Assembly: GCA_044351885.1 (NCBI GenBank)
Contig: JBILEW010000010.1
Coordinates: forward strand, 30-64,029
Length of the DNA: 64,000 nt
Source of the DNA: Bdellovibrionota bacterium
GTDB lineage: Bacteria > Bdellovibrionota_C > UBA2361 > OMII01
Direction of reading: 5' to 3'
The notes under the pieces were generated by a model. The model searched no databases, was not told the DNA's origin, and saw only the letters and a program-made list of their open reading frames with translations. Position numbers and translations under genes: made by a program. Shown here one piece after another: positions 3,119-62,664 of this stretch (position 1 is the first letter of the stretch; every line of letters begins with the position of its first letter).

Positions 3119-5017
3119 ATGGATCTTAGTGAGAGACATCAGGTGGTTGTAGTCGGGGGAGGCCACGCTGGGGTGGAGGCTGCATACGCCTCGGCGCGCC
3201 TCGGTGTGCCTACGGTGTTGGTGTCCCTCAGGCGCGAAGGCATCGGTCAGATGTCGTGTAATCCTGCCATCGGAGGAGTCGGTAAGGGTCATCTTGTCAA
3301 AGAGGTAGACGCTCTCGGTGGACTCATGGGGAGAGCCATCGATGCCACAGGCATACAGTTTCGAACTTTAAACACCAGTAAAGGTGCGGCAGCGAGAGCA
3401 TCGCGTGCGCAGGCCGACCGCGATCTCTACAAGGAGTGGGTGCAGCGCTACCTTGAGCAGGTTCCGAATCTCTCGATCGTAGAGGGTGAGGCTGCGGAGA
3501 TCGTTCTCTCCGGTGAGGAGGTGCAAGGGGTTCGTCTCAGAGATGGTTCGGTACTTCCAGCGCGCGCCGTTGTTCTCACCACCGGTACATTTCTTAAAGC
3601 GCTCATGCATACCGGCTCCTCTCAAACCGAGGGCGGACGACTCGGAGACATATCATCCAATTCGTTGAGCGACTCTCTCCGAGCGCTCGGATTTCCACTC
3701 GGACGGCTCAAGACGGGAACGCCCCCACGCCTGAGGCGCTCCACTATTGATTTCTCGGTACTCGAAGAACAGCCAGGAGACACGCCGCCACAACCGTTTT
3801 CATTCATGACCGGTTCAATCAACAGGCCGCAGATCTCGTGTTGGATGACCTCGACCAACGAAGTGACTCACGACCTGATACGTGCCAATCGTGAGCGAAG
3901 CCCGATGTTCAATGGGCAGATTAAATCAGGGGGGCCGCGCTACTGCCCGTCGATTGAAGACAAGGTCTTTCGTTTTGCGGACAAGACCAGCCATACTGTT
4001 TTCTTGGAGCCCGAAGGTTTTACCTCCGACATCGTGTATCCCAACGGGATCTCCACATCTCTGCCCCTCGATGTTCAAGAATCCTTTGTGCGAAAGATTC
4101 GAGGTTTGGAGAACGTCGAGTTTCTCGCTCCTGGCTATGCAGTTGAGTACGATTTCGTCGACCCACGCGAGCTATCGCAAACCTATGAAACAAAGGGAGT
4201 GCGCGGACTTTATCTCGCAGGCCAGATAAATGGGACGAGTGGATACGAAGAGGCAGCCGCGCAAGGGATCATCGCTGGAGCAAATGCGGCGCTCAAGGTG
4301 GTCGAAAAGGACCCGTTGATAATAACCCGAGGTCAGGGCTACATCGGTGTCATGACCGATGACCTCACGACGATGGGGGTCGATGAGCCGTATCGCATGT
4401 TCACCTCGCGCGCTGAGTACCGGTTGATCCTCCGAGAGGACAACGCCACTACGCGCATCTGTCCGATAGCGCGAGCGATAGGACTTCTTACGCCAGAGCA
4501 GATAGAGAGCTTCGAAGCGCGGCAAGGTTCGTACGACAGAGCATCAGCATGGATCTCAAAGGTTCGTGTGAAGCCGAACGCTGAAAACAATGCGTGGCTA
4601 GAACAGAACGACACGGCGCAGTTAAAGGACAGCGTCACCGTCGCGCAGCTCTTGAAGCGTCCGCAGCTCTCGCTGCGTCAGATACTGAAACAGTTTCCTT
4701 ACGAAGAGTCGCTGTCTGCTGATGTCGAGGCTGCACTCGAGATCGAGTTTAAGTTTGCAGGATATCTCAATCGTCAGGAAGAAGAAGTTCAGCGTCTCAA
4801 GAGGATCGAGGTCGAGGTCATACCGCACGATTTCCCGTACGACGAGATCAAGCAGCTCCGAGTTGAAGCGCGCGAGAAGTTAAAGAAACATCGCCCCTCT
4901 TCGATTGGGCAGGCGATGCGTATTCCTGGAGTTACACCGAGTGCGATATCGCTCTTGGCGGTATATCTGAAACGGTTTCGAGCCGGGGAGCTGGCGTCTT
5001 CCGAGGGGTCCAATTGA
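3119..5017 (+). CDS. mnmG: tRNA uridine-5-carboxymethylaminomethyl(34) synthesis enzyme MnmG
   Basis: [62 protein letters not shown]. Confidence 0.97.
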
Positions 5018-5126
5018 CGGACGGCGTGGACGCCGTCCCTCCTACGATGGTCGCGATAGAAGCAGCGATGCTTGGTCCGTGATAAAAGTGTAACCACCCA
5101 GGAGGGACGGCGTCCACGCCGTCCGT
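5017..5126. repeat. REPIN-like doublet: two inverted REP palindromes
   Basis: Perfect 27-bp IR acggacggcgtggacgccgtccctcct (5017-5043) / 5100-5126; each arm is a hairpin; lies between convergent mnmG and glmU. Confidence 0.85.
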
Positions 5127-5142
5127 GATGCGCGCGGCTCAG

Positions 5143-7960: not shown

Positions 7961-7996
7961 TCCTACTGGGTGGACGAACGCCTATGTAATGGAATA

Positions 7997-8140
7997 CGGA
8001 CGGCGGGGACGCCGTCCCTCCTAAGGCCGCGCGGGGAAACTTTAATAATCAACCCAACCCCCACTTTCTGGCTATGGGAAGGCTTTGCCTCGCTCCCCCT
8101 AAAACAGTCGTAACAGGAGGGACGGCGTCCCCGCCGTCCG
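7997..8140. repeat. REPIN-like doublet (same family as 5017-5126) with a second repeat module inside
   Basis: Perfect 26-bp IR cggacggcggggacgccgtccctcct / aggagggacggcgtccccgccgtccg; lies between convergent icd and the redoxin gene. Confidence 0.85.
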
Positions 8141-8802: not shown

Positions 8803-9837
8803 TCAATGCGTGACGTTAATTCTCGTAAGTTTTTGAGTGGTCGTTCGCCCGAACTGATCCCTCAAAGAAACTGAAACCGGTTGCTTTTGAAAGCTCTCTG
8901 AGGCGAGGGGGAAGTATTCCCCTATATACTGACCAGGTCGACGCTCCACCATCGGTATCGTCTCAACCGCAGAACCGATCGAAAAGAATGCCGTGTGGCC
9001 CGGAGTCCCTAGGGCAACGACGGTTAGCTTTCCTTTCGGCGCTATCACTCCGTTGGAGGCATCGTGTGCCGATGCGACCAGAGCCGGTGGAGCTGCCTGC
9101 AGAAACTCCGGACGATTCCTAGCGTTCAACGGAGCAACCGCTTTCGAAACGATCTCTCGTGCCAGGTCCGTAACTATCGTGTTGTCGAGTCCGCGAATCG
9201 GCTCGAGCACAACCGAAGACAATCCAGTCGGACCCTTGGTGATTCCACGACTGACGGAGTCTTCGGCGTGAGACTCAAAGAGGATTTTCTTCGTATTCGC
9301 AGATACCAACTTGAGGTCTATTCCTATCGTGGCTACGGTTTGAACACCGTAATAGCTCCGATCCCACTTCGTTACCTTCCCGTATAGTACAGCGTCGCAT
9401 GAAAGGAGATCTCTGCACACAGAGCTGGGATCTGCAGCAAACACCCGCTTGAGATCTAGCTTGGCAGCGCCGTTACCAGGCAAGGTGTAACCCTTGTGAA
9501 CAAACTCTGCGTCGACGATGGCAGGAATGATTACGTCGAGAGAGGCTTTCGAGAGTTCGGACTGTACGAGATCTTGAACGAACTCTGCCGGTGTCTGTTT
9601 CAACTTCGACGATACGATGACAACGTTGTCGATGAGGAGATTCTCGTCGGTTTGGACCAACTCTCCTTTCTCGTTGACTTGAGCAAAAGGTAGTACGGCG
9701 ATGCGAATCGGCTCGGCTGGGTTGAAGTCGACCGTGTGCTTGAAGGTGCCCGCGCAGGCCGAAAGCATTATGATCGCGAATCCGCCAATGAGAGGGCGAA
9801 GAAGAATAGAGGACAGACGAATGGAGGATGTTCTCAT
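8803..9837 (-). CDS. Lipoprotein, GNA1162/DUF799-like domain plus C-terminal beta domain
   Basis: Lipobox LSAC; RIAVLPF, CDAVLYGKVTKWD, LVSANTKKILF (CsgG/DUF799-like fold). Confidence 0.6.
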   Translation of the reverse strand: MRTSSIRLSSILLRPLIGGFAIIMLSACAGTFKHTVDFNPAEPIRIAVLPFAQVNEKGELVQTDENLLIDNVVIVSSKLKQTPAEFVQDLVQSELSKASLDVIIPAIVDAEFVHKGYTLPGNGAAKLDLKRVFAADPSSVCRDLLSCDAVLYGKVTKWDRSYYGVQTVATIGIDLKLVSANTKKILFESHAEDSVSRGITKGPTGLSSVVLEPIRGLDNTIVTDLAREIVSKAVAPLNARNRPEFLQAAPPALVASAHDASNGVIAPKGKLTVVALGTPGHTAFFSIGSAVETIPMVERRPGQYIGEYFPLASESFQKQPVSVSLRDQFGRTTTQKLTRINVTH

Positions 9838-9848
9838 AGTGCGCTCCT

Positions 9849-11021
9849 TTACGATCTCTCTGTGGTAAATGTGGTCGCTTGTGAGGGAACTCCACCCGAT
9901 CCTACGACGATAGCTCGAAGGTTCTCTTTTCGCGCAGGAACGGTCGATTTAGCCGTCCTCAACTCCGCGACCTTGGTGAAGGGCCCACTCTCTGTAGAGC
10001 TTGAGAAGACTACAACTTTCGAAGCTGCGCACTGGGGTACCTCGGCGCTGCATCCGAGGTTTTCGTTGGAGCGATCGGCGCCGATACGAGCACAAAGAAC
10101 CGAGAGCAGAGCCGCGCCGTCGGTTTGAGTTACATCGATCCTGTTCTGCAAAGTGCAGGGAGGCTCGACCGGTATGAAGAGCTCCTTGCGCACGGAGTTA
10201 CCGAAGGCGGTTCTGAGCTCTACCTGTGTCGTCCCCGAAGTGGGGGCAGCGAGAGCTGAGATGACGCTGCAGTAGCGCCCCGGGGAGACCTCATGTAGTG
10301 AAGCGCGTTGTGTACCTAGGAGCAGCGATGCAAACGAATGAGGAGTTCCATCGGCGCACACTTTGTACGAGCCTGGAGAATCCCATTCGGCCTTGGCTGC
10401 ACTCAATGCGACTTCGGTGCCTTCCTGTCGGGAAAGTCCTCCTCGCGACGCGACCTCCGGCAAATCCTCGACGATCCTCGCAGCAAATTTCGCTGCCAGA
10501 CTTTCGAAGCCTGAATCGCCGGTTCGTTTGACTTGAGCGATGATGCCTTGAAGGACCTGGCCAGACTCGAAAATAAGACCTCCTTTGACGCGCTCGGTAT
10601 GCTCCGCCTTGAGCAATTCCGCTCCGTCTTTGCCCTGGAAAAGCACCTCGCCACTAAGGGAGTCGTAATATCCAGCCAAGAAATTGTTTTGTGAGATAGA
10701 CGAGAGTTTAAGCACGACAAACCCGTCGACTAAATACTCGTTAGCGAGCGCTGATTTTTCGGGGCAGGTAGGAGAGGAGCAGAGTCGATTGACGACTTTG
10801 TCCTCGACTACTACGAAGCCTTCGTTCCTTAAGGCGTTGATCAGAGCACTGTGTACCGTGTCGACCCGCTCTCGAGGAATATCCACCGAATAGTCAGCGG
10901 GTAGTAGCGCAACGCTTTTGGGTAGGGCAGTGTCTTTCGATATTTTTGTAGTAAAGCTAGGTCCACAGCCGATAACTAGGAGCATGCCAGCGGCACAGAG
11001 CTGGGAGTAGGGTCTTCTCAT
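9849..11021 (-). CDS. Lipoprotein, paralog of 8803-9837 with Cys-rich extension
   Basis: GGAGGA RBS before ATG 11021; lipobox VIGC; KSVALLP; shared GTP..EVSPGRY domain. Confidence 0.6.
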   Translation of the reverse strand: MRRPYSQLCAAGMLLVIGCGPSFTTKISKDTALPKSVALLPADYSVDIPRERVDTVHSALINALRNEGFVVVEDKVVNRLCSSPTCPEKSALANEYLVDGFVVLKLSSISQNNFLAGYYDSLSGEVLFQGKDGAELLKAEHTERVKGGLIFESGQVLQGIIAQVKRTGDSGFESLAAKFAARIVEDLPEVASRGGLSRQEGTEVALSAAKAEWDSPGSYKVCADGTPHSFASLLLGTQRASLHEVSPGRYCSVISALAAPTSGTTQVELRTAFGNSVRKELFIPVEPPCTLQNRIDVTQTDGAALLSVLCARIGADRSNENLGCSAEVPQCAASKVVVFSSSTESGPFTKVAELRTAKSTVPARKENLRAIVVGSGGVPSQATTFTTERS

Positions 11022-11074
11022 ATTCCTCCGAAGTTCACGAAAAGACGGCCTCCCCACATTCGGTGGATGGAGCC

Positions 11075-11539: not shown

Positions 11540-13660
11540 TTATTTCAATCCACCCAGATCGGCCGGTGCGCACCGGAATGCAGCCGAACAGGGGGTTATC
11601 TGCACAGAGAGGAGACGGGCGTTCCCGGTGGAGCTCGTCTGCTTGGGGAGTTGCAGGCTCGCGCCGGCGGCTTCGAGTGATACCTTCTGGACCTGACGAG
11701 ACGTAACGTTGTTTCCTTCGTCTCTCCCAAGCTCGTAGACAGAGGCCGCACAACCAGAAGCGCTAGGCGCTTGAAACTCCAGGAGTAGTGGACTCGAGGG
11801 AGGGGTAAAGATCGGTGATGAGGTGGTTGTCCACGGGTCGATGCGGATGAGCATGCTGCCGTCGGCGCCAGTAGCTACGAGGGAAAAACGATCCTTGTTG
11901 TCCTGAAGCCTCTGCTCGAAGAGCGGTTGGTCCCAAGATTTAAAAAGAGAGGGTACTACTATGATCCATCGCAGGCCACAGATGCGGCTCAACCAATCGA
12001 AAGACTCCGCGGAAGGAAACGAGCGCAGTGCCTCGGGAAGCTCCATACTGAGTTTCGGCCTTTGGCCGCTGTACCCGTTGACGAAGGGGATTCCAGAGGA
12101 CGCGCTCCACAGAGCATAACGAGTGCTGAGGGTCGCTGATTCTGACCACGATTTTACGCGCCCTTTCTCGAGCTCTCCCGCAAATGGAAGTGCAATCGCT
12201 GCATCGTGCGGTTGAGCCGCCTGTTCGAGGGAATCAAAGGCCGCTGGTCTGGGGGAAAGGGGATCCAGCGGGAATACAGGGGTGTAGTTTTCCAGCATCG
12301 TGATGCCAAGTAGCAGGGCGCACCAGGCAGTTCGTCGCAATCGTGTGCCTTTGAAGAGTGAGCCTAGGGCGAGCGCAGCAGTGATGTAGACGCCCATGAT
12401 CACCACGCTCCCGAATCGACTGACTGCGCGAACCGAGTCCATCCCTGGCATCAGGCTATAGAGAATCGTGAAGGGTGCCAGAGCAGGCTCTCCCTTGGTA
12501 GGATTGCCGGCAGGTCCGAACGAGAGTACAAAAAATAGCGCGATGAGGGCTGCAAACAGTGCGCGAGGAGAGCGTGTCCGCACAGCATACGTACACACCA
12601 CGAGGAGTACGACCCATCCCGAAAGGGCAGTGAGAAGCTCAGACGCGATTCCAACGTCAACAACGCTCGAAGCGCACACGAGCGTCAGCGATGCCAGAAG
12701 TAAGATCGAAAAGGATAGGAGCGAGAGTTTCTGGCGCTCTCGTGCTACATGCGCGAGTGCCGCGCACAGAACCAAGAAACCCGCGCAAAGCGTTGCCTCT
12801 GTGTGGGTCCACTGGGAGGTGAATCCGAAGAGCCAGTTGAAAGCGGGAAACGATAGATATGAGAGACCAGAGGCAGCGAATGCGTCCGCTTCATAAAGCC
12901 CCCTCGATCCGAAGGTGTCTTTTACCTGGAGATACGATGGCAAGAGCCACGCTATCGGAAGTGCACCCAAACCCATCGCACTCGCGCGCAGCCCCGCCTC
13001 TTTGAAGCTCCTCCAGTCTAGTTGTAGAGAGAAGAGCCAGATTACGCCGAGCCCCAGAGCTGCAAAGATGGCATAATAGACGGCGCAATAGAACGATGCC
13101 GCAACGCACAATCCGGCAACAAACCATCTCAACATCGACGAATTGCGCGAGCCAATTACACATGCCCAGGCCAACGGTACCCAGAAGAAAAATTGGAGTT
13201 GAGGATGCCCGAAGTTACCTGTGAGGTACGAGCTGCAGGCGAATGCAGCCGCTGCAAAGAATGACGGCATCCATTCAACCGCGAGTGCTCGACACAGAGC
13301 TAAGACCCCTAGGCCGTTAAACACAAGCGCCGCTATGTAAACGGTATTGTATGCAGCCGCTAGAGAAACTCCGCACGAGAGGAGCACGCTTGCAAGCGCA
13401 GAGGGAAGGAGGAACGAATCGCTCCAGGCCCGCGTAAGCGGATAAGGATAAAACACGTGACTCTCTCCGCGCAGAGCGAGATTAGGAAAATGGTGAAAGC
13501 TCGCCGTGAGCCAGACGTAGAGTCCGCCGTCCCCTTGAGAGCCTCCGATGAAATGGGACGAGAGGAACCCCATCCAGTGTATATGGGTAACAAAGACCAG
13601 GAGGAGTAACCCAGTGATTGCGCCCAACCACGCAACAGTAGAATGAAAACGGCTCGACAC
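11540..13660 (-). CDS. Polytopic membrane protein, YfhO-like / putative GT-C glycosyltransferase
   Basis: Many TM segments; GDG..YVW, FYPYP..AWSD, VRAVSRF, NGYSG motifs. Confidence 0.6.
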   Translation of the reverse strand: MSSRFHSTVAWLGAITGLLLLVFVTHIHWMGFLSSHFIGGSQGDGGLYVWLTASFHHFPNLALRGESHVFYPYPLTRAWSDSFLLPSALASVLLSCGVSLAAAYNTVYIAALVFNGLGVLALCRALAVEWMPSFFAAAAFACSSYLTGNFGHPQLQFFFWVPLAWACVIGSRNSSMLRWFVAGLCVAASFYCAVYYAIFAALGLGVIWLFSLQLDWRSFKEAGLRASAMGLGALPIAWLLPSYLQVKDTFGSRGLYEADAFAASGLSYLSFPAFNWLFGFTSQWTHTEATLCAGFLVLCAALAHVARERQKLSLLSFSILLLASLTLVCASSVVDVGIASELLTALSGWVVLLVVCTYAVRTRSPRALFAALIALFFVLSFGPAGNPTKGEPALAPFTILYSLMPGMDSVRAVSRFGSVVIMGVYITAALALGSLFKGTRLRRTAWCALLLGITMLENYTPVFPLDPLSPRPAAFDSLEQAAQPHDAAIALPFAGELEKGRVKSWSESATLSTRYALWSASSGIPFVNGYSGQRPKLSMELPEALRSFPSAESFDWLSRICGLRWIIVVPSLFKSWDQPLFEQRLQDNKDRFSLVATGADGSMLIRIDPWTTTSSPIFTPPSSPLLLEFQAPSASGCAASVYELGRDEGNNVTSRQVQKVSLEAAGASLQLPKQTSSTGNARLLSVQITPCSAAFRCAPADLGGLK

Positions 13661-13864
13661 GAGTCTGATCCTGATCGTTTAAGAAGTGCCTGTCGGGCAG
13701 TGTAACCTTCTTGGGCCAAGTCGCAAGAGCTTGGTGCTCATAGAGAGTTGATTTTCATCTGAGGAACACCGAGACTCCTCAGCGGAAAGTTCGGGGATTT
13801 TTCGCATGAGTGCCGAGAGCAAAAGTAGTTGCGTCAGTCAGTGCTTGTACTATTTTGACACCTC

Positions 13865-16800
13865 ATGTCGTTAGAGCCATCCCAGCCGTCAACCCCAGCG
13901 CAAGCACCAGTCACTGCCACCGATAGCGGTGCAAATCTGATCGAATTGCAGGCTCCGAAAATTGAGACTGAGGTGGCTTCGTGTGCGACGCCGACCGAGA
14001 AAGAGACTCTTACCGCCAAGAGGGGATTTTGGGGAGCTCTGCGGTTTGTCGAGCGCGGGGAGTTCGATGGCACTGAGCGAGGTCTCAAGGCACTCAACGA
14101 CGGCTTGGCTCGGGCCTGGAATCAGTCGAGCCCAGTGGGCTGGATTCTGGCCCGTGTGCGATGTGAAATTCTGAAGATGCCTCCCTTCGAGTACGCCGAT
14201 GCTCACGGACTCCTGTCACACTCAACACTAGCTGGCCTCGAAACGTATCGTTCGCTCAAGCGGGCGCGTTTCAACCCTGAAACTATTCATCTCCTACTCG
14301 AAGGATGGGAGCGTTTGGCGGAGAAGCACAAGGTAGAGAACCCTCGGATAGCCGATATGCTCGGTGAAGCAAAAAGGGAGCTGCTACTCGCCCTTACTCG
14401 TAAATACGGCCAATCGGTATACGGCGTGCTCGCGCGGTGGCGCTACGAGGTTGGTCCGGAACGCTTCGATACGCTCTCAGGATATTCCTACAAGACGATG
14501 TGGCAACGCCAGAAGGCCGGAGTTATGTTCGATTTCGGCGATTTGCTGAGAATCGGAAGGAGTTTGGGGTTTATCGAGGCGCATGAGAAGCCACCTTCCC
14601 TATGGCAGAATCCTCGTGTTCAGGAGCTCGAAGCCGCATGGATGTTCGACTCCAAGCAGATGGGCCGCCCCAAGGAGATAGCGCAGCTTTACAGGATGGT
14701 CGAGGCGTGTGGGCTCAAAGTAGACAAAGACAGCCTACACCGTGATCCGAAAATCAAGTTGCAGTCGGTTGTCGTCGAGGCGCTGTATCGATTCGAGCGT
14801 GTATCCTGGAAAAAGATCGAGCCTCTCTTTCGTGAGCTCCGCGCATGTTCCTACATCACCGAGCCCGAATATCGGCGTATCAGGGCACGATGGGTCGAGC
14901 ATTGGAAGCATCAACCAGAATCGTTCGAACGACGTCTACGAAGCATCCGAGACGAGCGCGGGCTCACCAATTCACAGCTGGCTGAGGCCCTAGATTTGAA
15001 GCGTCAAGAGATGAATAAGCCGATCCTGCCGGTTTTCAGGGCGCTTTCGTACGGTGAAAAGAACAAGCACGCATCCTATGGGGTATTGGCTCATCTGATC
15101 GGACGGTCTAACGAAGAGGTCGAATCGCTTCTCGCACAGAAGCGCAGCGAGATACTTGCACAGTGGCGGAGACAAGGGAGCCTGATTACCTCGCCGGTCG
15201 CGGTGGAGCGTGAGCTCTGGTGCCTCGATTATTCAGATCTTCCTCACACAAAGAGCGATATCCAACGGCTCGAATGGGGCAAGAGGTGCTCGCTCGAGCC
15301 GGAGCGTGTGGTAACGGAGATACGCGAAATAGGTGAATCACGCGTGAAGGTCGCGCTCAAGCGGCTGCTCTCCCAGCGAGATCTCGACACGGTCCCGAGC
15401 GCCATATCGAATCTGGTAGCTCTTGAGGGATTGGCGCCCCTGGCACGCAGGTTAGAGACCTCCGTACCTGTTCTCAAAAATATCATGAGTGGTGCCGAAG
15501 TACCCACGTATCCGAAGCTCGTGAGCTTCATGCGTCTCCTCGGTCGCCAGCCGTCGCTAGCTCTCGAAGTCGATTGGAGAGATCAGTTCGCTCGACATCT
15601 GATAGCCGAGAACCGTAACGATCTCGAGCGAGTGTTGGATGCGTACGTAGCTGAGCACAGTGATTCGCGAAGGTCTTTGCTGCAAGAGAAGGGAAGGCGC
15701 TCCTCGGATGTTGCCCGTTTTTTTGATTGGATAAGCGAGGCGGGTGTCGCGGAGCCTGCAAATCTGACGAAGGTGCTCGAGTGCTTCGATATCGATCCTT
15801 CGCATCCGACGAGGTGGTTTCTCGAGAGCGTAGCCTACGAAGGAACCGTCGCCGAGGGACTCTCCAGGTGGCTGCAAAACATGGAGCAGGTAGAGGGATA
15901 CCGAGATATTCGGACGAAATTCGACAAAGCTCTGCGCGCTCATCAGCGGTCACGAAACAAAGGAAACTCCATAGAGAAGCTTCGGGAGCAGATCGTAGAT
16001 TTCGAGATCTCTCCAGCTTCCTCTTCGAGCAGCTCCGCAGCATGTGAGATCCTCCGACTTGTATCGGGGGTGACCCTCGCGGAAATTAAGGAAGCTCTGA
16101 CACTGCCGGGTGCTGTTGAGGGATCGATTGGGGCGTCACTCGTACAGGCTTGTCGTTCGAACGGGCTATCCACTCGGGATATCGCATTCGCCTTACGCGA
16201 CATGGTTCCATCCGACCGAAGGCCGATTGGCTTGCTGGAAGTGGGGATCGAGGTGGGGATCCCCTCCGCCGCCTGTCCGCCGGGTGTGTTGGCCTATCTT
16301 GCGGTCGAATCGGCTGAGCACGCAGAGCGAAGCATCGCTGCGCTGCGATCGGAGCTGAGTACGCGAGTCGAGAAGTTCAAGTTTCCAGGCCATGATGCGG
16401 TGGTCGAGATGATGGTGTGGGGAATCCGGCGAGACGATCTTGGTATCTCTCCCAAGGATTTTGCTCGGGAGATGTGGGGAGCTGTCGAGGCGGAATCCGA
16501 TACCCCGGACGAGCCTAACGCAGTCAACGCTGAGGATGCCGTCGATAAGGAGAGTTCCGCGACACAAGAAAAACGCCCAGGTGCGCGCATAAAGATTCAG
16601 GCGCAGGAATTGGGCTTGGAAAAAGTTCGAAAGGCTCTTCGAGAAGTGATCCATCGGCGCACGGCCGTTGTTCCGTGGCAGCTCGTGGAGATAGCTACTC
16701 AAGGGATGCCAGGCAAAGACCGGGCGTTCTCGGAGCGGGGTGGATTTCGTCTCGGGGCAGCAGCTCAATTCATAGCGGGCAGCGTAATGCCGACGCCGAA

Positions 16801-17923
16801 GCAGTTGAGACGAACTGTAGAGCTTGCAGAGTTGACCTTCTCGGATGAGATGGAATGGGGCTGGAGCGAGGCATACGCGCGCTTCTTGCAGAAGAGAGAG
16901 ACAGCGCCCCTGGGCCGCGCGCTCATGTGCCAAATCGTTTCCAAGGAGTTCGATTCTTCGGACACCACAGATCTGGTTGGCGGTAAGACGCTGATCGATA
17001 ATATAGTTTCCCGTTTCTTGAAGCGTAGCGGGCTGTCCGTTCGGAAATACAGGCTTGCGCTCCATGCGGCGTGTGTCGATGGAGTGCTCGAAGAAGAGCA
17101 CATCGACGCACTCGCGCGGGCTCTCGGATACGCTCCCAAGTCTCCGGCAGCGGCATTGTTGCAGTATCTTTCTGGTTCCCACAATGCTCAGTCAGCCCTC
17201 TTCGGCTGGAGCGAAAAATTTTGGAACCGCAAATCCGCAATAGACATGTTTCTGGAGGTCGGATCCTTTTACGCCAAGGAGCGCGAGCAAAGAGAAGCAC
17301 GACTGTCGGCAGGTAAATTAAGCGTGCAGGATCTCATCGCCGAGAGTGCGCGGTTACTGCATCAGCCCGAGGGCCAGGCCTCGCGAGAGTTCGTGGCAGC
17401 CCGGAAAAACTTCGTGGGGATGACTAGGGACGAGATCCTCGCCGCGTACATTCGAGCTAAGGCGGAGCTCGTAGAAGAGAGAGAGGTTGGAAAGAAACAA
17501 GCGCCGGCGGCGATAACACCAGAAGTGTGGGTCAAACCCAAGGAGCTTTTCACACTGCCTCTCGACTCTCGTTTGGATGAAATCGTTCATCGCTTGCGGG
17601 ACGGCAAATCTGTCTCGATTGCGGATACGATAGAGTTATTGCCTGTATTCTCACCCCTAATCAGCGAAATTTATCAGTATCTGAAGACCGAAACCCCGTG
17701 GTTTGTGGCAGCGACAGCCTTCTATCATCAACCAGATGAAGCGTTGCGTGAGATTCGTGAACAATTGAGGCAGGGAAAAGAGCCCAGATACCCTTCTCGC
17801 AAATTCCTGGAGACCCACTCCACCTGGGTGCGTGGCCGCGGAGACCTCGGAAAGCTCAACTCTATATCCATGAGATTGAACTTTAGGGAGCACTTCGTCG
17901 CCCCTGGTTCGATAAAGCGTTGA
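13865..17923 (+). CDS. Large hypothetical protein (1352 aa) with internal duplication and several XRE-like HTH motifs
   Basis: Uninterrupted 4-kb ORF; LRSIRDERGLTNSQLAEALDL and related motifs; aa ~353-750 aligns with ~754-1195. Confidence 0.8.
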   Translation: MSLEPSQPSTPAQAPVTATDSGANLIELQAPKIETEVASCATPTEKETLTAKRGFWGALRFVERGEFDGTERGLKALNDGLARAWNQSSPVGWILARVRCEILKMPPFEYADAHGLLSHSTLAGLETYRSLKRARFNPETIHLLLEGWERLAEKHKVENPRIADMLGEAKRELLLALTRKYGQSVYGVLARWRYEVGPERFDTLSGYSYKTMWQRQKAGVMFDFGDLLRIGRSLGFIEAHEKPPSLWQNPRVQELEAAWMFDSKQMGRPKEIAQLYRMVEACGLKVDKDSLHRDPKIKLQSVVVEALYRFERVSWKKIEPLFRELRACSYITEPEYRRIRARWVEHWKHQPESFERRLRSIRDERGLTNSQLAEALDLKRQEMNKPILPVFRALSYGEKNKHASYGVLAHLIGRSNEEVESLLAQKRSEILAQWRRQGSLITSPVAVERELWCLDYSDLPHTKSDIQRLEWGKRCSLEPERVVTEIREIGESRVKVALKRLLSQRDLDTVPSAISNLVALEGLAPLARRLETSVPVLKNIMSGAEVPTYPKLVSFMRLLGRQPSLALEVDWRDQFARHLIAENRNDLERVLDAYVAEHSDSRRSLLQEKGRRSSDVARFFDWISEAGVAEPANLTKVLECFDIDPSHPTRWFLESVAYEGTVAEGLSRWLQNMEQVEGYRDIRTKFDKALRAHQRSRNKGNSIEKLREQIVDFEISPASSSSSSAACEILRLVSGVTLAEIKEALTLPGAVEGSIGASLVQACRSNGLSTRDIAFALRDMVPSDRRPIGLLEVGIEVGIPSAACPPGVLAYLAVESAEHAERSIAALRSELSTRVEKFKFPGHDAVVEMMVWGIRRDDLGISPKDFAREMWGAVEAESDTPDEPNAVNAEDAVDKESSATQEKRPGARIKIQAQELGLEKVRKALREVIHRRTAVVPWQLVEIATQGMPGKDRAFSERGGFRLGAAAQFIAGSVMPTPKQLRRTVELAELTFSDEMEWGWSEAYARFLQKRETAPLGRALMCQIVSKEFDSSDTTDLVGGKTLIDNIVSRFLKRSGLSVRKYRLALHAACVDGVLEEEHIDALARALGYAPKSPAAALLQYLSGSHNAQSALFGWSEKFWNRKSAIDMFLEVGSFYAKEREQREARLSAGKLSVQDLIAESARLLHQPEGQASREFVAARKNFVGMTRDEILAAYIRAKAELVEEREVGKKQAPAAITPEVWVKPKELFTLPLDSRLDEIVHRLRDGKSVSIADTIELLPVFSPLISEIYQYLKTETPWFVAATAFYHQPDEALREIREQLRQGKEPRYPSRKFLETHSTWVRGRGDLGKLNSISMRLNFREHFVAPGSIKR

Positions 17924-20850: not shown

Positions 20851-21285
20851 GGCTCATCGTGGAATCCAGTCGGCGGTGCCGAGGCCGGGGATAGCGCAAG
20901 TCGTTGTTTTGACCGAAACATCCCGCCTTTCCACGTGAACGTACCCGAACGAGCGGCTTTATTCCCTCCCGCCCGAACTAGAGCAGTATGCTCGACTATG
21001 AAAAACTAGACGTCTATTGAACAGCGCTATTTCTCAATAGCACGAAGATCGGTCATGGAGTGTGGTGCCCTCTTTGATCTGTTAAGCGCTCTAAGCTATG
21101 TCGTCCCCTGACGCCTGACGAGTATCGCGCTGGGAAGCGTTTGCTTACAAGGATTGCAACCATGCTTTCCAAGCTATGCCTTCAGCCCCCATGACGCTCG
21201 TTTCGGGTACGTTCACGTTTACGTGCACGAGCACGTTTACGTCCGGATAATACCGAGTCCTACCCACTCGATTCCACGAAGAGTC
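20851..21285 (+). mobile_element. NCGTRN inverted-repeat element carrying a deleted four-helix-bundle gene (copy 1)
   Basis: Inner IR acgtgaacgtacccgaa (20933) / ttcgggtacgttcacgt (21202); imperfect outer IR ggctcatcgtggaatc / gattccacgaagagtc; highly similar to 40941-41282. Confidence 0.75.
20988..21194 (+). pseudogene. Four-helix-bundle protein (23S rRNA IVS protein / TIGR02436-like) remnant
   Basis: Fragments in shifting frames: MLDYEKLDVY*, QRYFSIARRSVMECGALFDLL, LTPDEYRAGKRLLTRIATMLSKLC. Confidence 0.75.
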
Positions 21286-21302
21286 TTTTTGCACCCTGTG
21301 GT

Positions 21303-24300
21303 TTATGCAGCCTGCGGCGTCCGAAATGATGCATGCAAACGCATGCGCTCTCGCAGCGCCTCGCCCCACAAGGTACGCGCTTCGCTAAGCTCACGAGGAT
21401 GACCTTCGAAGACGACTGTGCCTCCCTGCTCTCCAGGTCCTGGTCCAAGCTCGATCACCCAATCCGCTTGCGTAATGGTATCAGCGTCGTGCTCTATCAC
21501 GATTACCGAGTGGCCTTGATCAACGAGACGATGCAAACCCTTCAGGAGTAGTTCGACATCCAAGCGATGCAATCCTGTGGTTGGCTCATCGAGGATGTAT
21601 ACCGTGTGTCCCTTTCGAGACGTGTGTAGCTCGGAGACGAGTTTTATGCGTTGGCTCTCGCCTCCCGAGAGGGTCGAGGATGGCTGCCCGAGAGTGAGGT
21701 ACCCCAAGCCTAATTCGCAGGCCAGCCTGCATACCTGGTGAACCTTGCGGTGGTTAACGAAGAAGGTTTTGGCCTCCTCGAAGGTCAGTTTCAAAACCTG
21801 GCTGATGCTCAGATCGCGAAACTTCACGGAATCTGCTTCGACGGAAAATCTACTTCCCATGCAGCCTTCGCAGAGAACCGTTGCCTCGGCCAGAAAGCTC
21901 ATCTCCAGCTTGAGCTCCCCTTGGCCTTTACACACCGAGCAGCGCCCCTTGCCCGTGTTGTGCGAAAAATAGCTCGCCCCCCAACCTCTCGACTTCGCTT
22001 CGAGGGTCTCTGCGAACACTTTACGTATCTCATCCCAGATTCCCAGATACGAAGCGGGGGTCGAACGAGAGGTTTTACCGATCGGTTGTTGATCCACTAC
22101 GAGATGACGCTCGATCGGAAGGGTGCTCGTGACGACACCGCAGGTGCCACGGTAGATCCCCTTGGCACCCGCTCCGGAAGCCAGCGCCTCCCCGAGAACC
22201 CCGTGAACGAGCGAACTCTTTCCGGAACCTGATATGCCGGCCACCACTACCAGGCTCTCGAGAGGAATTTTCACATCCAGCCTCGATAGGTTGTTCTTCG
22301 TAGCTCCTTCGATCGAGATGTGCTCTGTAGAGGTGGAGGTTGACTCGTTGATCGAGAGTTGAGTGCCGAGCGCAGCTCCCGTTGGACTCTTCTTAGCTAC
22401 AACTGCATCTCGAACTGAGCCTTCAAATACGATCTCTCCACCGTGTCTACCCGCAGCCGGTCCAACATCGATGATGTGCTCGGCCGCAAGTATGTTGTCT
22501 ATCTCGTGCTCGATCTGGATTACCGTGTTGCCACGCTCCTTGAGCTCGATCAGCTTTTTGAGTAGGCGTTTGTTGTCGGCCGGATGGAGACCTGCACTCG
22601 GTTCGTCGAAGATGTAGGTCGCCCCGCACAGAGGAGAGCCCATGGCAGTTGCGAGCCGTAACCGTTGAAGCTCTCCGTTGGACAGCGTCGAGCACTCTCT
22701 GTTGAGAGAGAGATGTTCGAGGCCGAGATCCACGAGAGTCGACAGCTTTCCCTCTAATTCCGAGAGTATTGGCAAAGCTATCTCACGTCGAGCCTTATCC
22801 GCTCGCAGCGATGCGAGCGTCTGTGCTAGCTGTGGTGCAGGTAGATTCGTCAATTCGTGAATGTTCTTTCCTAGGAGACGTATGCTGCGTCCGATCTCGT
22901 TGATCCTTGTCCCACAACATTCAGGGCATAACTTTCCCCGTACCGTTCCGAAACCATCGCAGCGATCGCACCGTCCTCTGCGTGAGTTGAAGGAGAGATC
23001 CTCCGGGTCCGGCTTGAAGAAGCCACGATGGCACACCTGACACGTTCGCTCAGAGCTGAAGATCTGCTCGTCGCTTTCACTGACTACGACAACTGTGCCG
23101 CCGCCGACAGCGAGGGTTTGGACAACGCCCTCTCGGATCAGGTCCACCGGCATGTTTTTGACATTGAAGCGAGCAGTCACGAAGTCTATAGAGTGGCTCT
23201 TGGTTTTAGCGAGTCCCTCGTCGACGAAACGTGAAGGAGCCGAGAAGGTACCATCTACACGAACCTCGCTAATCTCCGTCTCCATCGCCCTCTGGAATAC
23301 GGCTCGATGATTGCCTTTCTTTTGGTTGATGACAGGGGCAAGGATCCGGACGGTTCCCTTGTAGGTACTCTTAATGAGATCTGCGATGTGTTCAGCGGAG
23401 AGGGGAGAGATCGCCTGCTCCGGGTGATCTGGACAGTATTGAATTCCCACCTTGGCGTACAGAAGTCGCAAAAAGTTGTACACCTCGCTCATCGTAGCAA
23501 CGGTGGAGAGGGCAGAAGGTTGAAAGGTGTGTTGGTAGACGCAGATGGTCGGTTGCACGTTACGAATGTCGTCGATGGCGGGCTTCTTGAGCTCCTTGAT
23601 GAATTGACGCGCATATGGAGAGAGACAATCGAGATATCGACGCTGACCCTCGGCATACAGGATATCCTTGGCGATGGTCGATTTTCCGGAACCGGAAACC
23701 CCAGTGAGCGTCACGAGTGTGTTGAGCGGGATGTCGAGGTTCACGTCCTTGAGGTTGTGCTCCTTGGCTCCCCTGATCTGAATCGCACGTGGCCCACTGC
23801 GCGCGCCTGAGGCCCGGTTCTTTCGCGCGCGCTTAGCAGACGCGGCCTTTTTGCGGACTTTACCGTATCGTTCGACGAACTCTTTCAGGTAATGAGCAGT
23901 CAAACTCAACCTGTTCCCACTGCCCACGGTGTCCGAAACAAACTGGTGAGGCGTGCCTTCCTTGAGCACCTCGCCACCTCGATAGCCGCCTTCTGGACCG
24001 AGATCGATTATCCAATCCGCATCTGCGATGAGGCGCAAGTTGTGCTCTACGCAAATTATCGAGTGTCCCTGATCTACGAGCAGCTCGAAGAGTTCGAGGA
24101 GCCGCTCCACATCCCTGACGTGTAGGCCCGTAGTCGGTTCGTCGAAGAGGAAGAGTGATCGACCTCGCGAGCCCTCGATAATGTGAGGGACGAGCTTTAG
24201 CCTCTGCGCCTCTCCACCTGACAGCTCGCTCAAGGGGTGTCCGAGGGTCAGGTGCCCTAAGCCAAGTTGTGAGAGAACCTTACACACACTGGAGATGAGC

Positions 24301-26690
24301 AGCTCACTACCGATAAATTCGCTGCACGCATCGACGCTCATTGAGAGTATCTCGTGGACATTTCTCCCTTTGTAACGAACCTCGAGAACAGGAGCCTGGA
24401 ATCGCATACCCAAGCAAGTTTCGCATTCGATGAAGACGTCGCTCAGAAACTGCATGTCCTCGCGGATGAAGCCAGCCCCTTCGCACGCTGGGCACCGTCC
24501 TGCGTTGACGTTGAAGGAGAACGAAGACTTCGAAAGCCCGCGGGCCTTCGCTTCCTCGGTGCTGGAAAGGAGCTCGCGCACGCGATCCCAGACCTTCGTA
24601 TAGGTGGCTATGTTGGCGCGCGGAGTCTTGGAGAGCGGAGACTGATCGACTAAGAGCACGTCGCGCACATGCTCAAATCCCGATACCTGAGCATCAACAG
24701 TGAGCTCACCCGGAACGATACCTTTAGAGAGCTCGTACGATGCCTCGATGACCTCGGTTAGAAGGGAGCTTTTGCCACTACCCGAGACCCCAGTAAGGCA
24801 CACAAACGCGTTCAATGGTATGTCGAGATTGATGGACTTGAGGTTGCGATTGGATGCCTTGCGAATCTCGAGTCTTCGCTCGAACGAAGGTTTTGCGTCG
24901 CGAGCGCTGAAGGAGCGCATGCCGAGGCCATCCCAGTCTTCACGCGCACCGAGGAAGGATACCTCTCCTCCCTTTTCGCCAGCCTCTGGCCCCAGCTCCA
25001 GTATAGTATCGGCTGCTTCCAGGCAGTCGGGATCGTGCTCGACAACCGCTAGAGAGTTGCCCTTGTCCGTAAGCTCTCTGAGAGCTCGCACGAGCTGATC
25101 GGTGTCGCGTGCATGTAGCCCCACCGAGGGCTCGTCCAAGACGAAGTGAGTCGAGATGAGGTTGCTTCCCAAAGCGGATACGAGATTGACTCGTTGTGTC
25201 TCACCACCCGACAGGGTCCTCGCTTGTCGATCGAGGCTGAGGTATGGCAATCCCAGCGCGACGAGATAGCCGAGTCGACTACCGATGTTCTCGCAAACGT
25301 CCTTGAGTTCGCGCGGCATCCGTCCCTCTGTCTTGAGAGTGCCTCTCAAGCGGTCGAACCAGGTAGAGAGCTCGTCGAGCGGCATTTTCCAGATCTCTGC
25401 GATTGTGCGCCCTTCAATCTGATATGCGAGCGCGTCCGACTTAAGGCGAGTTCCTTTGCACGAAGGGCAGTCGACCTGACCGCGGTAGCGCGCAAGGAAG
25501 ACGCGCACGTGCATCTTGTATTTCTTACCTTCGAGATATTTGAACCACGCATTGATCCCGACGAACTTCCGAGAGCGGCTCTCGAAGATGAGATTGCGTT
25601 GCTCGGTAGAGAGCGCAGACCAGGGCTTGTCTATAGGAATGCCTGCCTCCTTGCAAAAAGCCAGGAGTTGCTTGTGTTCCCAGGCGGCGGAGTTGCCTCG
25701 CCAGCATTCGACTGCATATCCGGCGATCGTCTTACTGTGGTCCGGTACGCACTTGTTTGGATCGATTACGAGAATTTTTCCAAATCCATTACACTCACTA
25801 CATGCACCTATCGGATGGTTGTAGGAAAAGAGCGCCGGTCGCGGACGCTCGATCGAGATATCGCCATCACCACAATGAAAGGTGTTCTTGAACACATACG
25901 ACTCGAATAGGGTGCTGACGACTTTGGGTTCACCCAAGGTTGAAACTCGAGCCAAGGGCTTGGTGACTTTGCGAGCGACCTCAATCACCTCGATGGTGCC
26001 ATTTCCGAGGGAGAAGCACTGTTCGAGGGATTCCCGCAGCCGCTTCGCGGAGAAATTCCCCTCTTTGCAGCGGTCGATGATTACTGAAAGCTGTTTGATT
26101 CGCTTCGGTGGCGGCGTGTCTTCGAAGCTCGAGATCTCCGCCTTCGTTTGGTCGAAATATCGCGAGTACCCCAACATCTGCAGTCGCTCGAGTGTCTCGC
26201 GGGAGTTGCCAACCCTCACACCGACGAGAAAAGTAGCGTGCGACTTTACAGAGCACCAGCGCTCGAGGAGTTCGGTTACCCGCACAGGATCCCAGCGCGT
26301 AAGCTCGAGTCCGCATCGCGGGCACATCGGAGTTGAGACGTTGCTCCACACGATTTTGAGGTAATCGTTGATGTCGGTCATCGACCCGACCGTTGAGCGC
26401 GAGTTTAGGATCCTCGTACGCTGTTGGATAGCAATAGCCGGCCGCACGTTCTCCAACAGGTCAACCTTGGGGCGCTTCACCTTATCGAAGAATTGGCGAG
26501 TATAGGGAGAGAACGTCTCTATGTAGCGGCGCTGTCCCTCTGCGTAGATCGTGTCGAAAGCGAGGGAGGATTTGCCGGATCCCGAGAGCCCCGTGATACC
26601 GACAAATGTGTCGTGTGGCATCTCGATATCGATGTGCTTGAGGTTGTTCTCGCGGGCGTTACGGATTGTGAGGGAGTTGCGCGCAGCCAT
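21303..26690 (-). CDS. uvrA: Excinuclease ABC subunit A, double-length (four ABC domains)
   Basis: Four Walker A motifs GxSGSGKS, two YAEGQRRY motifs, signatures LSGGE x3 and LSNGE, multiple Zn-finger CxxC pairs. Confidence 0.95.
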
Positions 26691-40286: not shown

Positions 40287-40946
40287 GTGGTCATGATGAG
40301 TATGAATTCACGAGTAGGTAATTCGGCATTCACAAGAATGCTATTCTTTGTAGTTGTTTCGGCACTACTGACAAGCTGCTCCTCGACAAAGGTTGTGCAG
40401 TCATGGGCTAATCCCGAGTTGTCGCCTCCTAAGCGGGTGATGATATTCGGAGTAACGAAAGAAGAGGTACTCAGGCGCTCGTATGAGGATCAGCTGAGTC
40501 AAGCGCTCACGTCTGAAGGGCTATCGGCGATCCCGAGTTATAAGGTGCTCCCGAGTGAAGGTGAGGTGGAGAAGGATAAGCTGACCGAGGCGGTTCATAA
40601 GGCGGGAGCAGATGCGGTGTTCATCACGCGGTTGGTACGTGTAGCGAAGCGTTTGGACACAGTGCCAGTGCCCGCCCCTGTATGGGGGCCACCGTTTGGT
40701 CCGTGGGGTGGTTATTATCCCTATTGGCCGAACTACTACTACGACTCTTATCGGATCGTAGAGCGTGAGTTTGCTTTCATCGAATCCAATCTCTACAAAG
40801 CGGATAGTAGTACTCTACTCATGAGTATCATGACGAGGACAGAGGACCCTTCCTACTCGGATCGTAAGGTACAAGAAGTTGTGCGCTTGGTCGTGAAGGA
40901 GTTTCGTAAGAACGGGCTGCTTGGTGGGGTAGAGGCTGCTACGTGA
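40287..40946 (+). CDS. Lipoprotein of unknown function (DUF4136-like)
   Basis: Lipobox LTSC; RRSYED, ADAVFITRLV, G/P/Y/W-rich loop; stop codon lies in the repeat arm. Confidence 0.7.
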   Translation: MVMMSMNSRVGNSAFTRMLFFVVVSALLTSCSSTKVVQSWANPELSPPKRVMIFGVTKEEVLRRSYEDQLSQALTSEGLSAIPSYKVLPSEGEVEKDKLTEAVHKAGADAVFITRLVRVAKRLDTVPVPAPVWGPPFGPWGGYYPYWPNYYYDSYRIVEREFAFIESNLYKADSSTLLMSIMTRTEDPSYSDRKVQEVVRLVVKEFRKNGLLGGVEAAT

Positions 40947-41282
40947 ACGTGCTCGTGCACGTAAACGTGAACGTACCCGAACGAGCCCCCGCCCGAAATA
41001 GAGCAGTATGCTCGACTATGAAAAATTAGACGTCTATCGAACACTGCTATTTCTCAATAGCACGAGGATCAGTCATGGAGTGTGGCACCATCTTTGATCT
41101 GTTAAACGCTCTAAGCTATGTCGTCCCCCGACGAGGATCGCGCTGGGAAGCGTTTGCTTACAAGGATTGCAGCCATGCTTTCCAATCTATGCCTTCAGTT
41201 GCCATGATCCCTGTTTCGGGTACGTTCACGTTTACGTGCACGTTCACGTCGGCATAACACCGAGTTCTACCCACTCGATTCC
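40941..41282 (+). mobile_element. NCGTRN inverted-repeat element carrying a deleted four-helix-bundle gene (copy 2)
   Basis: Arms 40941-40981 / 41215-41249 with a perfect 28-bp core cgtgcacgtaaacgtgaacgtacccgaa; tail tacccactcgattcc shared with copy 1. Confidence 0.8.
41008..41207 (+). pseudogene. Four-helix-bundle protein remnant
   Basis: MLDYEKLDVYR / YFSIARGSVMECGTIFDLL / DEDRAGKRLLTRIAAMLSNLC in three frames. Confidence 0.75.
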
Positions 41283-41301
41283 GCCAAGACCCTAATATAT
41301 A

Positions 41302-48426: not shown

Positions 48427-48594
48427 GGACCGCGGACTTTCTAGTCCGCTTTCTGCTGGGATCATGATGCTGATAGCTAGCGGAGCGGAAGCTCCGCGGT
48501 CCAAGGGGGTGGAGGTCGGACCGCGGACTTTCTAGTCCGCTTTCTGCTGGGGTCATGATGCTAATAGCTAGCGGAGCGGAAGCTCCGCGGTCCA
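48427..48594. repeat. Tandem pair of 77-bp REPIN-like units (period 91 bp)
   Basis: Each unit: ggaccgcggactttctagtccgc..gcggagcggaagctccgcggtcca; units differ at 2 positions. Confidence 0.85.
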
Positions 48595-48787
48595 GGGGAG
48601 TCGTGATCGATTGCAGAGCCCTACTCTCTGTGTTCCCTGTGATCAGCAGCTTAGCCAATAAATGTCGCCAAGGTTCGAAGTCCGTAGCCCCTGCGTACTA
48701 CGAGAATCCACCAATTTTACCCCGCTGTTGGATCAGTATCCCCCTTTCTCCAGATAAGAGGGTGCAAAGGAGAACAAGGGTACCTTC

Positions 48788-62480: not shown

Positions 62481-62664
62481 CCCTAACGAAGCGAGGGGAA
62501 ACGTACCTTCGGTTTCGCTTTTAAATTTAGCACGTGAACGTGCTCGTGCTCGTAAACGTGCACGTACCCGAACATCTTGATGTTTTTATTCCGGGTGCGG
62601 TTACGTTCAGGTGCACGAGCACGTTCACGTGATAGGGAGGACGGTTTTACCTCGCCTCCCTAAG
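62481..62664 (-). mobile_element. Empty NCGTRN inverted-repeat element, reverse orientation
   Basis: Reverse complement of 938-1126 (core cccgaacatcttgatgttttt, both IR pairs present). Confidence 0.8.

Follow-up and report, generated by a model that had tools for sequence, protein, structure and literature searches.

The 64,000-nt stretch analyzed here (the window; positions 30 to 64,029 of contig JBILEW010000010.1 from a Bdellovibrionota bacterium) encodes a 1352-residue protein, P0001, at 13865..17923 on the forward strand. The protein is a member of an undescribed, sizeable family in which known domains, helix-turn-helix (HTH) domains of the XRE/Cro-C1 type, occur in an undescribed architecture. 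It is soluble and all-helical and consists of four modules, N, U1, U2 and C (Table 1). Its internal duplication of ~400 residues is genuine, U2 being a duplicate of U1. The reading that we prefer, while giving it about an even chance, is that of a transcription-associated, probably DNA-binding, multi-HTH scaffold.

The open reading frame (ORF) is as an earlier note on this DNA (the original prediction) had described it. It starts with ATG, is open throughout to give 1352 residues and a stop, and has a G+C content of ~55%, which matches the remainder of the window. The protein (isoelectric point, pI, 8.65) is cytoplasmic and all-alpha. The absence of a transmembrane segment stated in that note was supported by a maximal 19-residue Kyte-Doolittle mean of 1.25. 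The Pfam scan returned HTH families only, with no other family and no catalytic domain. The NCBIfam scan gave a single match of 10.6 bits, at chance level, and no PDB sequence was matched below E 0.015 when the family profiles of N, U1 and C were used in hmmsearch. In the ESM Atlas, the features obtained with the whole protein scored at most 0.84 and were treated as leads only, and the C module gave no usable match. Antisense ORFs of up to 329 residues are present within the gene (e.g., 16193-17182 on the reverse strand); they show 38 to 48% identity in relatives, as the opposite strand of a conserved gene gives, and have no sign of being genes.

Internal duplication

A blastp comparison of residues 341-752 to residues 753-1200 gave an E value of 3.9e-7 at 22.6% identity over 257 columns, and the Smith-Waterman local score of U1 against U2 was 92, compared to 38.9 +/- 5.7 for 200 shuffles (z = 9.3). 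When the family alignments of the two units were compared by hhalign, a probability of 99.9 was obtained (E 3.1e-34, 386 columns), and with deeper unit alignments this became 100 (E 5.6e-45, 385 columns), matching residues 356-743 to residues 757-1193. In a sliding comparison of 80-residue stretches, U1 and U2 were in register from 331/736 through 670/1116. Each of five sub-segments of the unit matched its counterpart at hhalign probabilities of 94 to 98, and at the level of single HTH segments, D5 matched D8 at 98.4 and D4 matched D7 at 96.8. The tandem duplication claimed in the original prediction was thus recovered by both blastp and hhalign. All of the motif pairs that had been listed for it were in register in the hhalign alignment, namely GLTNSQLAEAL/GLSTRDIAFAL, GVLAHL/GVLAYL, VERELW/VEMMVW, RLEWG/REMWG, SGAEVPTYPKL/AGSVMPTPKQL, EVDWRDQFARHL/EWGWSEAYARFL, DPSHP/APKSP, GVTLAEI/GMTRDEI and others.

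The N module was also considered as a third copy of the unit and was rejected, the best hhalign probability (43.5, residues 180-247 against 505-571) not being significant. For N against U2 the probability was 34.3 (175-344 against 927-1088, in register), a value that is suggestive and below significance.

Predicted fold

Two AlphaFold2 models were built, model 1 for residues 45-760 from a 43-sequence alignment and model 2 for residues 745-1352 from 34 sequences. Both are nearly pure helix, with a mean predicted local distance difference test score (pLDDT) of 89.6 and a predicted template modeling score (pTM) of 0.79 for model 1, and corresponding values of 89.0 and 0.71 for model 2. When the complete models were searched with Foldseek (both in PDB, and model 1 also in BFVD), no row reached E <= 0.001; what was returned aligned poorly and over long stretches to helical-repeat proteins. 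The PDB was searched a second time by VIA-align, which is independent of Foldseek, and the best 50 rows for each whole model were considered.

For model 1, 49 of the best 50 VIA-align rows fell on model residues ~464-530, corresponding to protein residues ~508-574 (D5). By title, ~40 of the D5 rows were XRE/Cro-type repressors, antitoxins or controller proteins, and DdrO, HigA, CapH, P22 c2, 434 repressor, SinR, C.AhdI and BldD were among them. The best D5 row was ImmR (7t8i_B; root mean square deviation [rmsd] of 2.3 Å over 62/65 residues) with a Z of 7.4, which is within the chance range for helical models according to the tool's note, as a Z below 8 can represent a common arrangement. The XRE fold was credited to D5 despite this because the list of rows was uniform and the small targets were covered near-completely. 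As modeled, D5 has the five-helix lambda-repressor-like (XRE/Cro) fold, and the residues of the XRE signature (T/S starting helix 3, the turn G, and P) are present as S533, G543 and P547, which are invariant or nearly so in the family. The modeling and structure search proposed in the original prediction accordingly located an HTH fold at D5. D1 was represented by one row (7p4a_A, Z 5.9, model residues 42-135, protein residues 86-179), while for D8 (protein residues ~935-1017) 5 of the best 50 model 2 rows were XRE proteins, with Z values of 4.4 to 5.0.

HTH modules by profile comparison

The segments were compared by hhalign to an HTH_3 reference of 30 genuine domains (Pfam E <= 1e-8). They came from 21 related genomes and were the 30, of 63 listed, for which loci were available. 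For the segment sub-alignments, rows covering <60% of the segment were dropped, and 27 to 43 rows per segment were kept. In local mode, the highest probabilities were obtained for D5 (94.7, E 6e-8, 55 columns), D4 (93.9, 26 columns, helices 1-2 only) and D8 (93.8, 67 columns), followed by D2 (85.6, E 5.6e-6) and D1 (77.6, E 1.9e-5). The values obtained with -glob were 80.9, 44.5, 74.3, 34.7 and 18.8, respectively. Of the control segments, X2, X3, X4 and C gave 0.1, 0.5, 0.6 and 1.0.

Five XRE-like modules, D1, D2, D4, D5 and D8, are therefore directly supported, and a sixth, D7, is supported via its homology to D4. The two N-terminal HTH candidates of the original prediction correspond to D1 and D2 and were upheld. 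Its proposal of two XRE/Cro-like HTHs per unit held for D4, D5 and D8; D7 gave only 12.2 against HTH_3 and was deduced to be a degenerate copy of D4 because of the match between the two.

In Pfam, the whole protein scored 29.6 bits against HTH_31 (PF13560; cut-off, 27), the best stretch being 526-565, and 21.4 bits against HTH_3 (PF01381) at 358-381, which is under the cut-off of 23. Assignment to XRE/Cro-C1 by Pfam is thus marginal and made through one family, HTH_31. A PHROGs "transcriptional repressor" match was observed at 345-384 (E 3.2e-4). The same picture was obtained for the family in 169 member scans (two members were scanned twice), where nearly all Pfam matches were to XRE-type HTH families and some were strong. 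HTH_31 was found in 9/43, 2/34 and 10/77 members (best E 1.4e-20), HTH_3 in 3, 2 and 5 of the same 43, 34 and 77 (best E 2.4e-16), and HTH_19, HTH_26 and Xre-like-HTH in few members each. Other types of domain were seen in P0107, which has sigma-70 regions, and in three weak or partial matches, whose domains are unrelated. P0125 and P0154, which match the family weakly, are proteins with a SHOCT-like repeat (PF22746) and TrbI, and P0146 (profile E 1.6e-5) is a NACHT giant; these three are probably not true family members. Segments D3, D6 and D9 compared to the SHOCT-like repeats of P0125/P0154 gave hhalign probabilities of 2.5 to 16.6, with weak matches as the reference.

TABLE 1. Modules of the 1352-residue protein and positions of the dispersed element (window coordinates)
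Feature	Residues	Coordinates	Strand	Remarks
Whole ORF	1-1352	13865..17923	+	P0001, 1352 aa; full-length relatives without internal stops
N-terminal tail	1-50	13865..14014	+	Acidic (pI 4.06), consensus x-rich, poorly conserved; residues 45-54 mean pLDDT 62
N module	51-352	14015..14920	+	Most conserved part of family; holds D1 and D2
D1	86-158	14120..14338	+	XRE-like HTH candidate, LARVRCEILKM...LSHSTLAGLE
D2	181-238	14405..14578	+	XRE-like HTH candidate, VGPERFDTLSGYSYKTMWQRQKAG
Repeat unit 1 (U1)	353-752	14921..16120	+	Pairs with U2 by blastp and hhalign
D4	350-415	14912..15109	+	XRE-like HTH in U1, GLTNSQLAEAL
D5	506-582	15380..15610	+	Best-supported XRE/Cro-type five-helix HTH domain, LETSVPVLKNIMSGAEVPTYPKL
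Repeat unit 2 (U2)	753-1200	16121..17464	+	Evolves faster than U1
D7	751-816	16115..16312	+	Degenerate counterpart of D4
U2 insertion	872-906	16478..16582	+	Acidic, net charge -7; pLDDT 52-57 (model residues 131-160); gap in U1/U2 alignment, not in U1
D8	935-1011	16667..16897	+	XRE-like HTH, counterpart of D5, GAAAQFIAGSVMPTPKQL
C module	1201-1352	17465..17920	+	Conserved helical domain, ETPWFVAA...LGKLN..SMRLNF; no PDB-sequence or Atlas match; long forms only
Dispersed element		2-103, 972-1126, 20930-21290, 40933-41290, 62532-62630		

Fusion to sigma-70

Fifteen members of odd length were scanned with Pfam. In P0107 (1259 residues), sigma-70 regions 1.2 (793-818), 2 (997-1064), 3 (1077-1149) and 4 (1164-1233) were found, and the N+U1 profile matched residues 21-647 of the same protein at a probability of 99.9 (E 5.2e-35, 579 columns). 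A relative 66% identical to P0107 has the same sigma domains and is labelled Candidatus Peregrinibacteria. P0107 and P0187 are each a complete sigma-70 factor with an N-terminal N-U1 extension of ~650 residues, and one of the two carries the Candidatus Peregrinibacteria label. P0001 contains no sigma-70 Pfam region at E <= 10, and the RpoD of its genome is encoded by a separate gene (789 residues).

By domain-fusion logic, the joining of N-U1 to sigma-70 suggests a role at promoters or on the holoenzyme, and the sequences thereby hint at a role in transcription initiation. In a more specific and rather doubtful version of this idea, the N-U module would be an unrecognized multi-HTH partner of transcription initiation, a "sigma extension" that would dock to the holoenzyme of sigma-70 while reading extra DNA near the promoter. 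It would be free-standing, with one or two units, in one Bdellovibrionota order and fused in Candidatus Peregrinibacteria. If the unit was indeed duplicated on two separate occasions, how far the protein reaches along DNA may be the property under selection.

Family, distribution and evolution

Relatives were sought among 1.84 billion cluster representatives with a profile built from 10 sequences over residues 60-1240, which gave 150 clusters (50% identity) at E <= 1e-3, 117 at E <= 1e-10 and 59 at E <= 1e-30. The protein is therefore not the orphan that the original prediction had taken it for. Five full-length relatives with 49 to 71% identity were obtained in a word-indexed search, and matches were found in 15 of the 41 related genomes searched, including full-length proteins at 29 to 35% identity without internal stops. 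Hidden Markov models (HMMs) of N, U1, U2 and C distinguished two architectures, a long form of ~1230-1350 residues consisting of N-U1-U2, usually with C, and a short form of ~650-950 residues consisting of N-U1, the short form being the commoner. The carriers are uncultured Bdellovibrionota/Bdellovibrionales metagenome-assembled genomes (MAGs), some records being labelled Deltaproteobacteria or Pseudomonadota. For the homolog distribution, which the original prediction had also suggested for study, 124 genomes of the phylum were sampled. A match at E <= 1e-5 was present in 26 of them, and every one of the 26 is labelled as the same genus (20/35, including this genome), the same family or the same order, hence as one order. 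No conserved neighborhood was seen. Members are publicly annotated as "hypothetical protein" or, automatically, as "transcriptional regulator with XRE-family HTH domain." In the portions of text accessible to a full-text literature search, no paper was found on a giant protein with multiple XRE HTHs, nor on a sigma factor extended in this way.

To reconstruct the history of the unit, 85 unit sequences were placed in a quick IQ-TREE tree: 24 first and 24 second units from long forms, plus 37 from the single-unit short forms. This tree omits P0002 (identical to P0001) and units with <300 HMM positions, and it is provisional, the careful search being unfinished. Second units were placed in one clade in 21 of 24 cases (SH-like approximate likelihood ratio test [SH-aLRT] support, 92), and their 21 first units were placed in another (89), with parallel branching. 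Since first and second units form separate parallel clades, most long forms are deduced to stem from one old duplication. In P0009, P0027 and P0029, the first and second units are sisters (SH-aLRT 92), which suggests, as far as the tree can be trusted, an independent second duplication or gene conversion. P0020 (871 residues) has a hybrid unit, in which the first 157 positions of U1 continue into U2 positions 218-423; unequal recombination between units would give such a product.

Only one copy of the gene is present in its own genome, where the two matches obtained are U1 and U2 of one ORF. Compared to the closest syntenic genome, its product shows 59.9% identity, the lowest of nine shared genes (others, 70.1 to 94.6%), and the identity of the modules to this ortholog is 69% for N, 66% for U1, 55% for C and 53% for U2. 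The residues W, G, P and L are the best conserved in the family. As a whole, the gene is chromosomal, accessory and fast-evolving, present in one copy and without a fixed partner gene. Of the metagenome runs from lakes or freshwater, 20 (18 studies) contained at least 65% of its sampled words, and two of these runs may be the source sample; none of the 22 matching runs is listed as RNA. In all four of the lake metagenome runs compared, the gene was covered by contigs without insertions or deletions, and in one run a variant had 8 substitutions in 7 codons, 4 of the codons being synonymous.

Function

Judged from sequence, the protein would bind DNA, recognize a multipartite site and cooperate with sigma-70. 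N, U1 and U2 each carry XRE/Cro-C1 HTH domains within a rigid helical scaffold. The family has N-U1 (~700-900 residues) as its basic form. The two-unit form would derive from the one old duplication in most long members, with a second, independent duplication probable in a small side group. With several HTHs at fixed distances along a single chain, the protein would contact a DNA site that is extended or made of several parts, and it would not need to dimerize as single-domain XRE repressors do. Joint action with the sigma-70 holoenzyme is possible because N-U1 is fused to the N terminus of a full sigma-70 factor in another phylum. The mildly basic nature of the family (median pI of 9.16 in 25 long forms) was counted in favor of this scaffold, and the N module has a net charge of +12. 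From the interpretation in the original prediction, the duplication and the XRE/Cro-like HTHs were retained, and the orphan status, the defense sensor and the binding to dispersed repeats were not.

Several observations weigh against a DNA-binding scaffold. D5 carries a slight excess of acidic residues (net charge, -1), and the charges of U1 and U2 balance to zero. The Z value of the best D5 row is within the chance range stated above, and the XRE rows of model 2 are mixed with unrelated folds. The -glob comparison to HTH_3 kept the module order of the local run at lower probabilities. D6 (22.6), D9 (14.4), D7 (12.2) and D3 (2.1) have no HTH_3 resemblance in the local comparison, which itself is not perfectly clean, as the control segment X1 gave 39.1; X1 contains IQRLEWGKR, which recalls the ISRIERGKR turn. 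The sigma-70 fusion occurs in only 2 of ~150 clusters and in a different phylum. No upstream palindrome or autoregulatory site was found by consensus promoter/terminator scan and sequence inspection, the only means used, and that scan gave nothing above shuffles near the gene. Finally, XRE-fold domains can bind protein, as in RodZ-MreB (2wus, which is among the D5 structural rows).

The main alternative, which we consider less probable, is a protein-protein scaffold. In it, degenerate XRE-like bricks, as in RodZ, cyanase and HppE, would be packed into a rigid body of helices whose ligands are not DNA but other proteins, perhaps RNA polymerase or sigma. This is supported by the pTM of model 1, which indicates fixed packing and not beads on a string, by the charges of D5, U1 and U2, by the presence of RodZ, cyanase, HppE and MPnS among the structural neighbors, and by W, G, P and L being the most conserved residues. 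The small number of members that pass the Pfam HTH thresholds (as counted above for HTH_31) is also consistent with it; however, the HTH_31 and HTH_3 domains of some members are strong and canonical, D5 has kept the canonical XRE signature (S533, G543 and P547), and the family is mildly basic overall. That the gene is nonfunctional, being a chance ORF or a decaying remnant, can practically be dismissed in view of the full-length relatives without internal stops down to 29% identity, the confident predicted fold, the intact copies in 4/4 metagenome runs, and the variant with 4 synonymous codons among 7.

A role in conflict, with the HTH array serving to detect an invader (for example, in sensing phage or prey or in regulating immunity), is considered unlikely for this accessory protein. 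The patchy distribution (20/35 genomes of the genus), the lowest conservation among nine syntenic genes (59.9% against 70-95%) and the variable gene location would fit such a role, as would ImmR, DdrO and CapH, which are protease-controlled repressors, among the structural neighbors. Many other XRE proteins, however, scored within Z 1 of these three. The "defense sensor" of the original prediction found no support, since P0001 and six neighboring ORFs matched 0 families of PADLOC-DB 2.0 at E <= 0.01, the neighborhood is neither conserved nor defense-like, and no effector or NTPase domain was found in P0001 or the family, apart from the doubtful, weak match to the NACHT giant P0146. In the window, the upstream gene is divergent and encodes a 706-residue polytopic membrane protein, and the downstream gene encodes a 296-residue protein with a signal peptide. 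Synteny was observed only with the closest genome; the neighbors differ in four other genomes and are housekeeping-like there (M48 peptidase, DUF3617, glycosyltransferase, AdoHcy hydrolase and tRNA-guanine transglycosylase). On viral contigs, six pattern matches were obtained with the patterns used, and none was a relative.

Dispersed element and other features of the window

The window contains copies of a dispersed intergenic element of ~350 nt (Table 1) with hexamer-periodic ACGTNN runs (ACGTGC/ACGTTT/ACGAGC). It gave 42 BLAST matches (203 candidates) in this genome and occurs in 26/35 genomes of the genus, often at contig ends; it could be MITE-like (miniature inverted-repeat transposable element), REP-like (repetitive extragenic palindrome) or a binding-site array. 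The idea that the protein binds these repeats was not supported by their distribution, as the element is present in 14/20 carrier and 12/15 noncarrier genomes, and at five or more matches in 12/20 and 8/15, respectively. Incompleteness of the MAGs weakens this count and cannot produce the many repeat-rich noncarriers.

Intergenic copies of a G+C-rich palindrome, GGACGGCGTCCACGCCGTCC, and its variants were observed at 2046-2072, 5013-5044, 5099-5130, 7996-8023 and 8114-8140 and resemble shared terminator hairpins or a REP-like element. At 48427-48608, a 91-nt unit is present in two tandem copies that are 92% identical, each with inverted arms GGACCGCGGA...TCCGCGGTCC. Two reverse-strand ORFs at 8803-11057, of 344 residues (GNA1162-like lipoprotein domain) and 402 residues (no family), are missing from the corresponding region of the closest genome (L018), which is otherwise syntenic, and represent a two-gene indel. 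The AT skew at 12001-14000 is +0.21, far above that of other parts of the window, and coincides with the reverse-strand gene for the 706-residue membrane protein, the coding strand of which is T-rich. A 1795-residue protein encoded at 21303-26690 on the reverse strand has UvrA DNA-binding, UvrA interaction and ABC ATPase domains; its length far exceeds that of an ordinary UvrA, and its counterpart in the closest genome shows 87% identity.

Significance and comparison with known systems

The XRE-type HTH is among the commonest bacterial DNA-binding modules and is known almost only from small, single-domain, dimeric regulators. An array of at least five such modules in one rigid chain would mean another way of building specificity for DNA, or for a partner, from one brick. 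In this family a 400-residue unit was probably duplicated more than once, and in another phylum the family is fused to sigma-70. The catalog for uncultured freshwater Bdellovibrionota would gain an unannotated family of ~150 clusters, and the clear domain map and testable constructs are of practical value.

Single-domain XRE/Cro-C1 proteins have one HTH per chain of ~60-130 residues and read palindromic operators as dimers. D5 shares the five-helix fold of such repressors and antitoxins (ImmR, DdrO, P22 c2, 434 repressor, SinR, HigA and C.AhdI) at Z values of 6 to 7.4 and an rmsd of 1.9 to 3 Å over 53 to 65 residues, and D1, D2, D4, D5 and D8 share HTH_3 profile similarity with them. The window protein differs in having at least five modules in one 1352-residue chain with a helical scaffold, and its N, X and C parts match no described family. 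RodZ/YmfM proteins, whose XRE fold is among the D5 neighbors (2wus_S and 3fym_A, both Z 6.5), illustrate that the fold is able to mediate protein contacts; RodZ has one HTH and is located in the membrane, whereas no transmembrane segment is seen here. AraC/XylS and the eukaryotic POU domain have more than one HTH per chain, so that a monomer reads a bipartite site. Their modules number only two and belong to different HTH classes, and no sequence or fold match to them was seen here. Sigma-70 factors are single all-helical chains in which several HTH-containing domains read separate DNA elements at fixed spacing. Pfam detects no sigma-70 region in the window protein, and its likeness to these factors is one of analogy, to which the fusion of N-U1 to a full sigma-70 factor in P0107 and P0187 is added.

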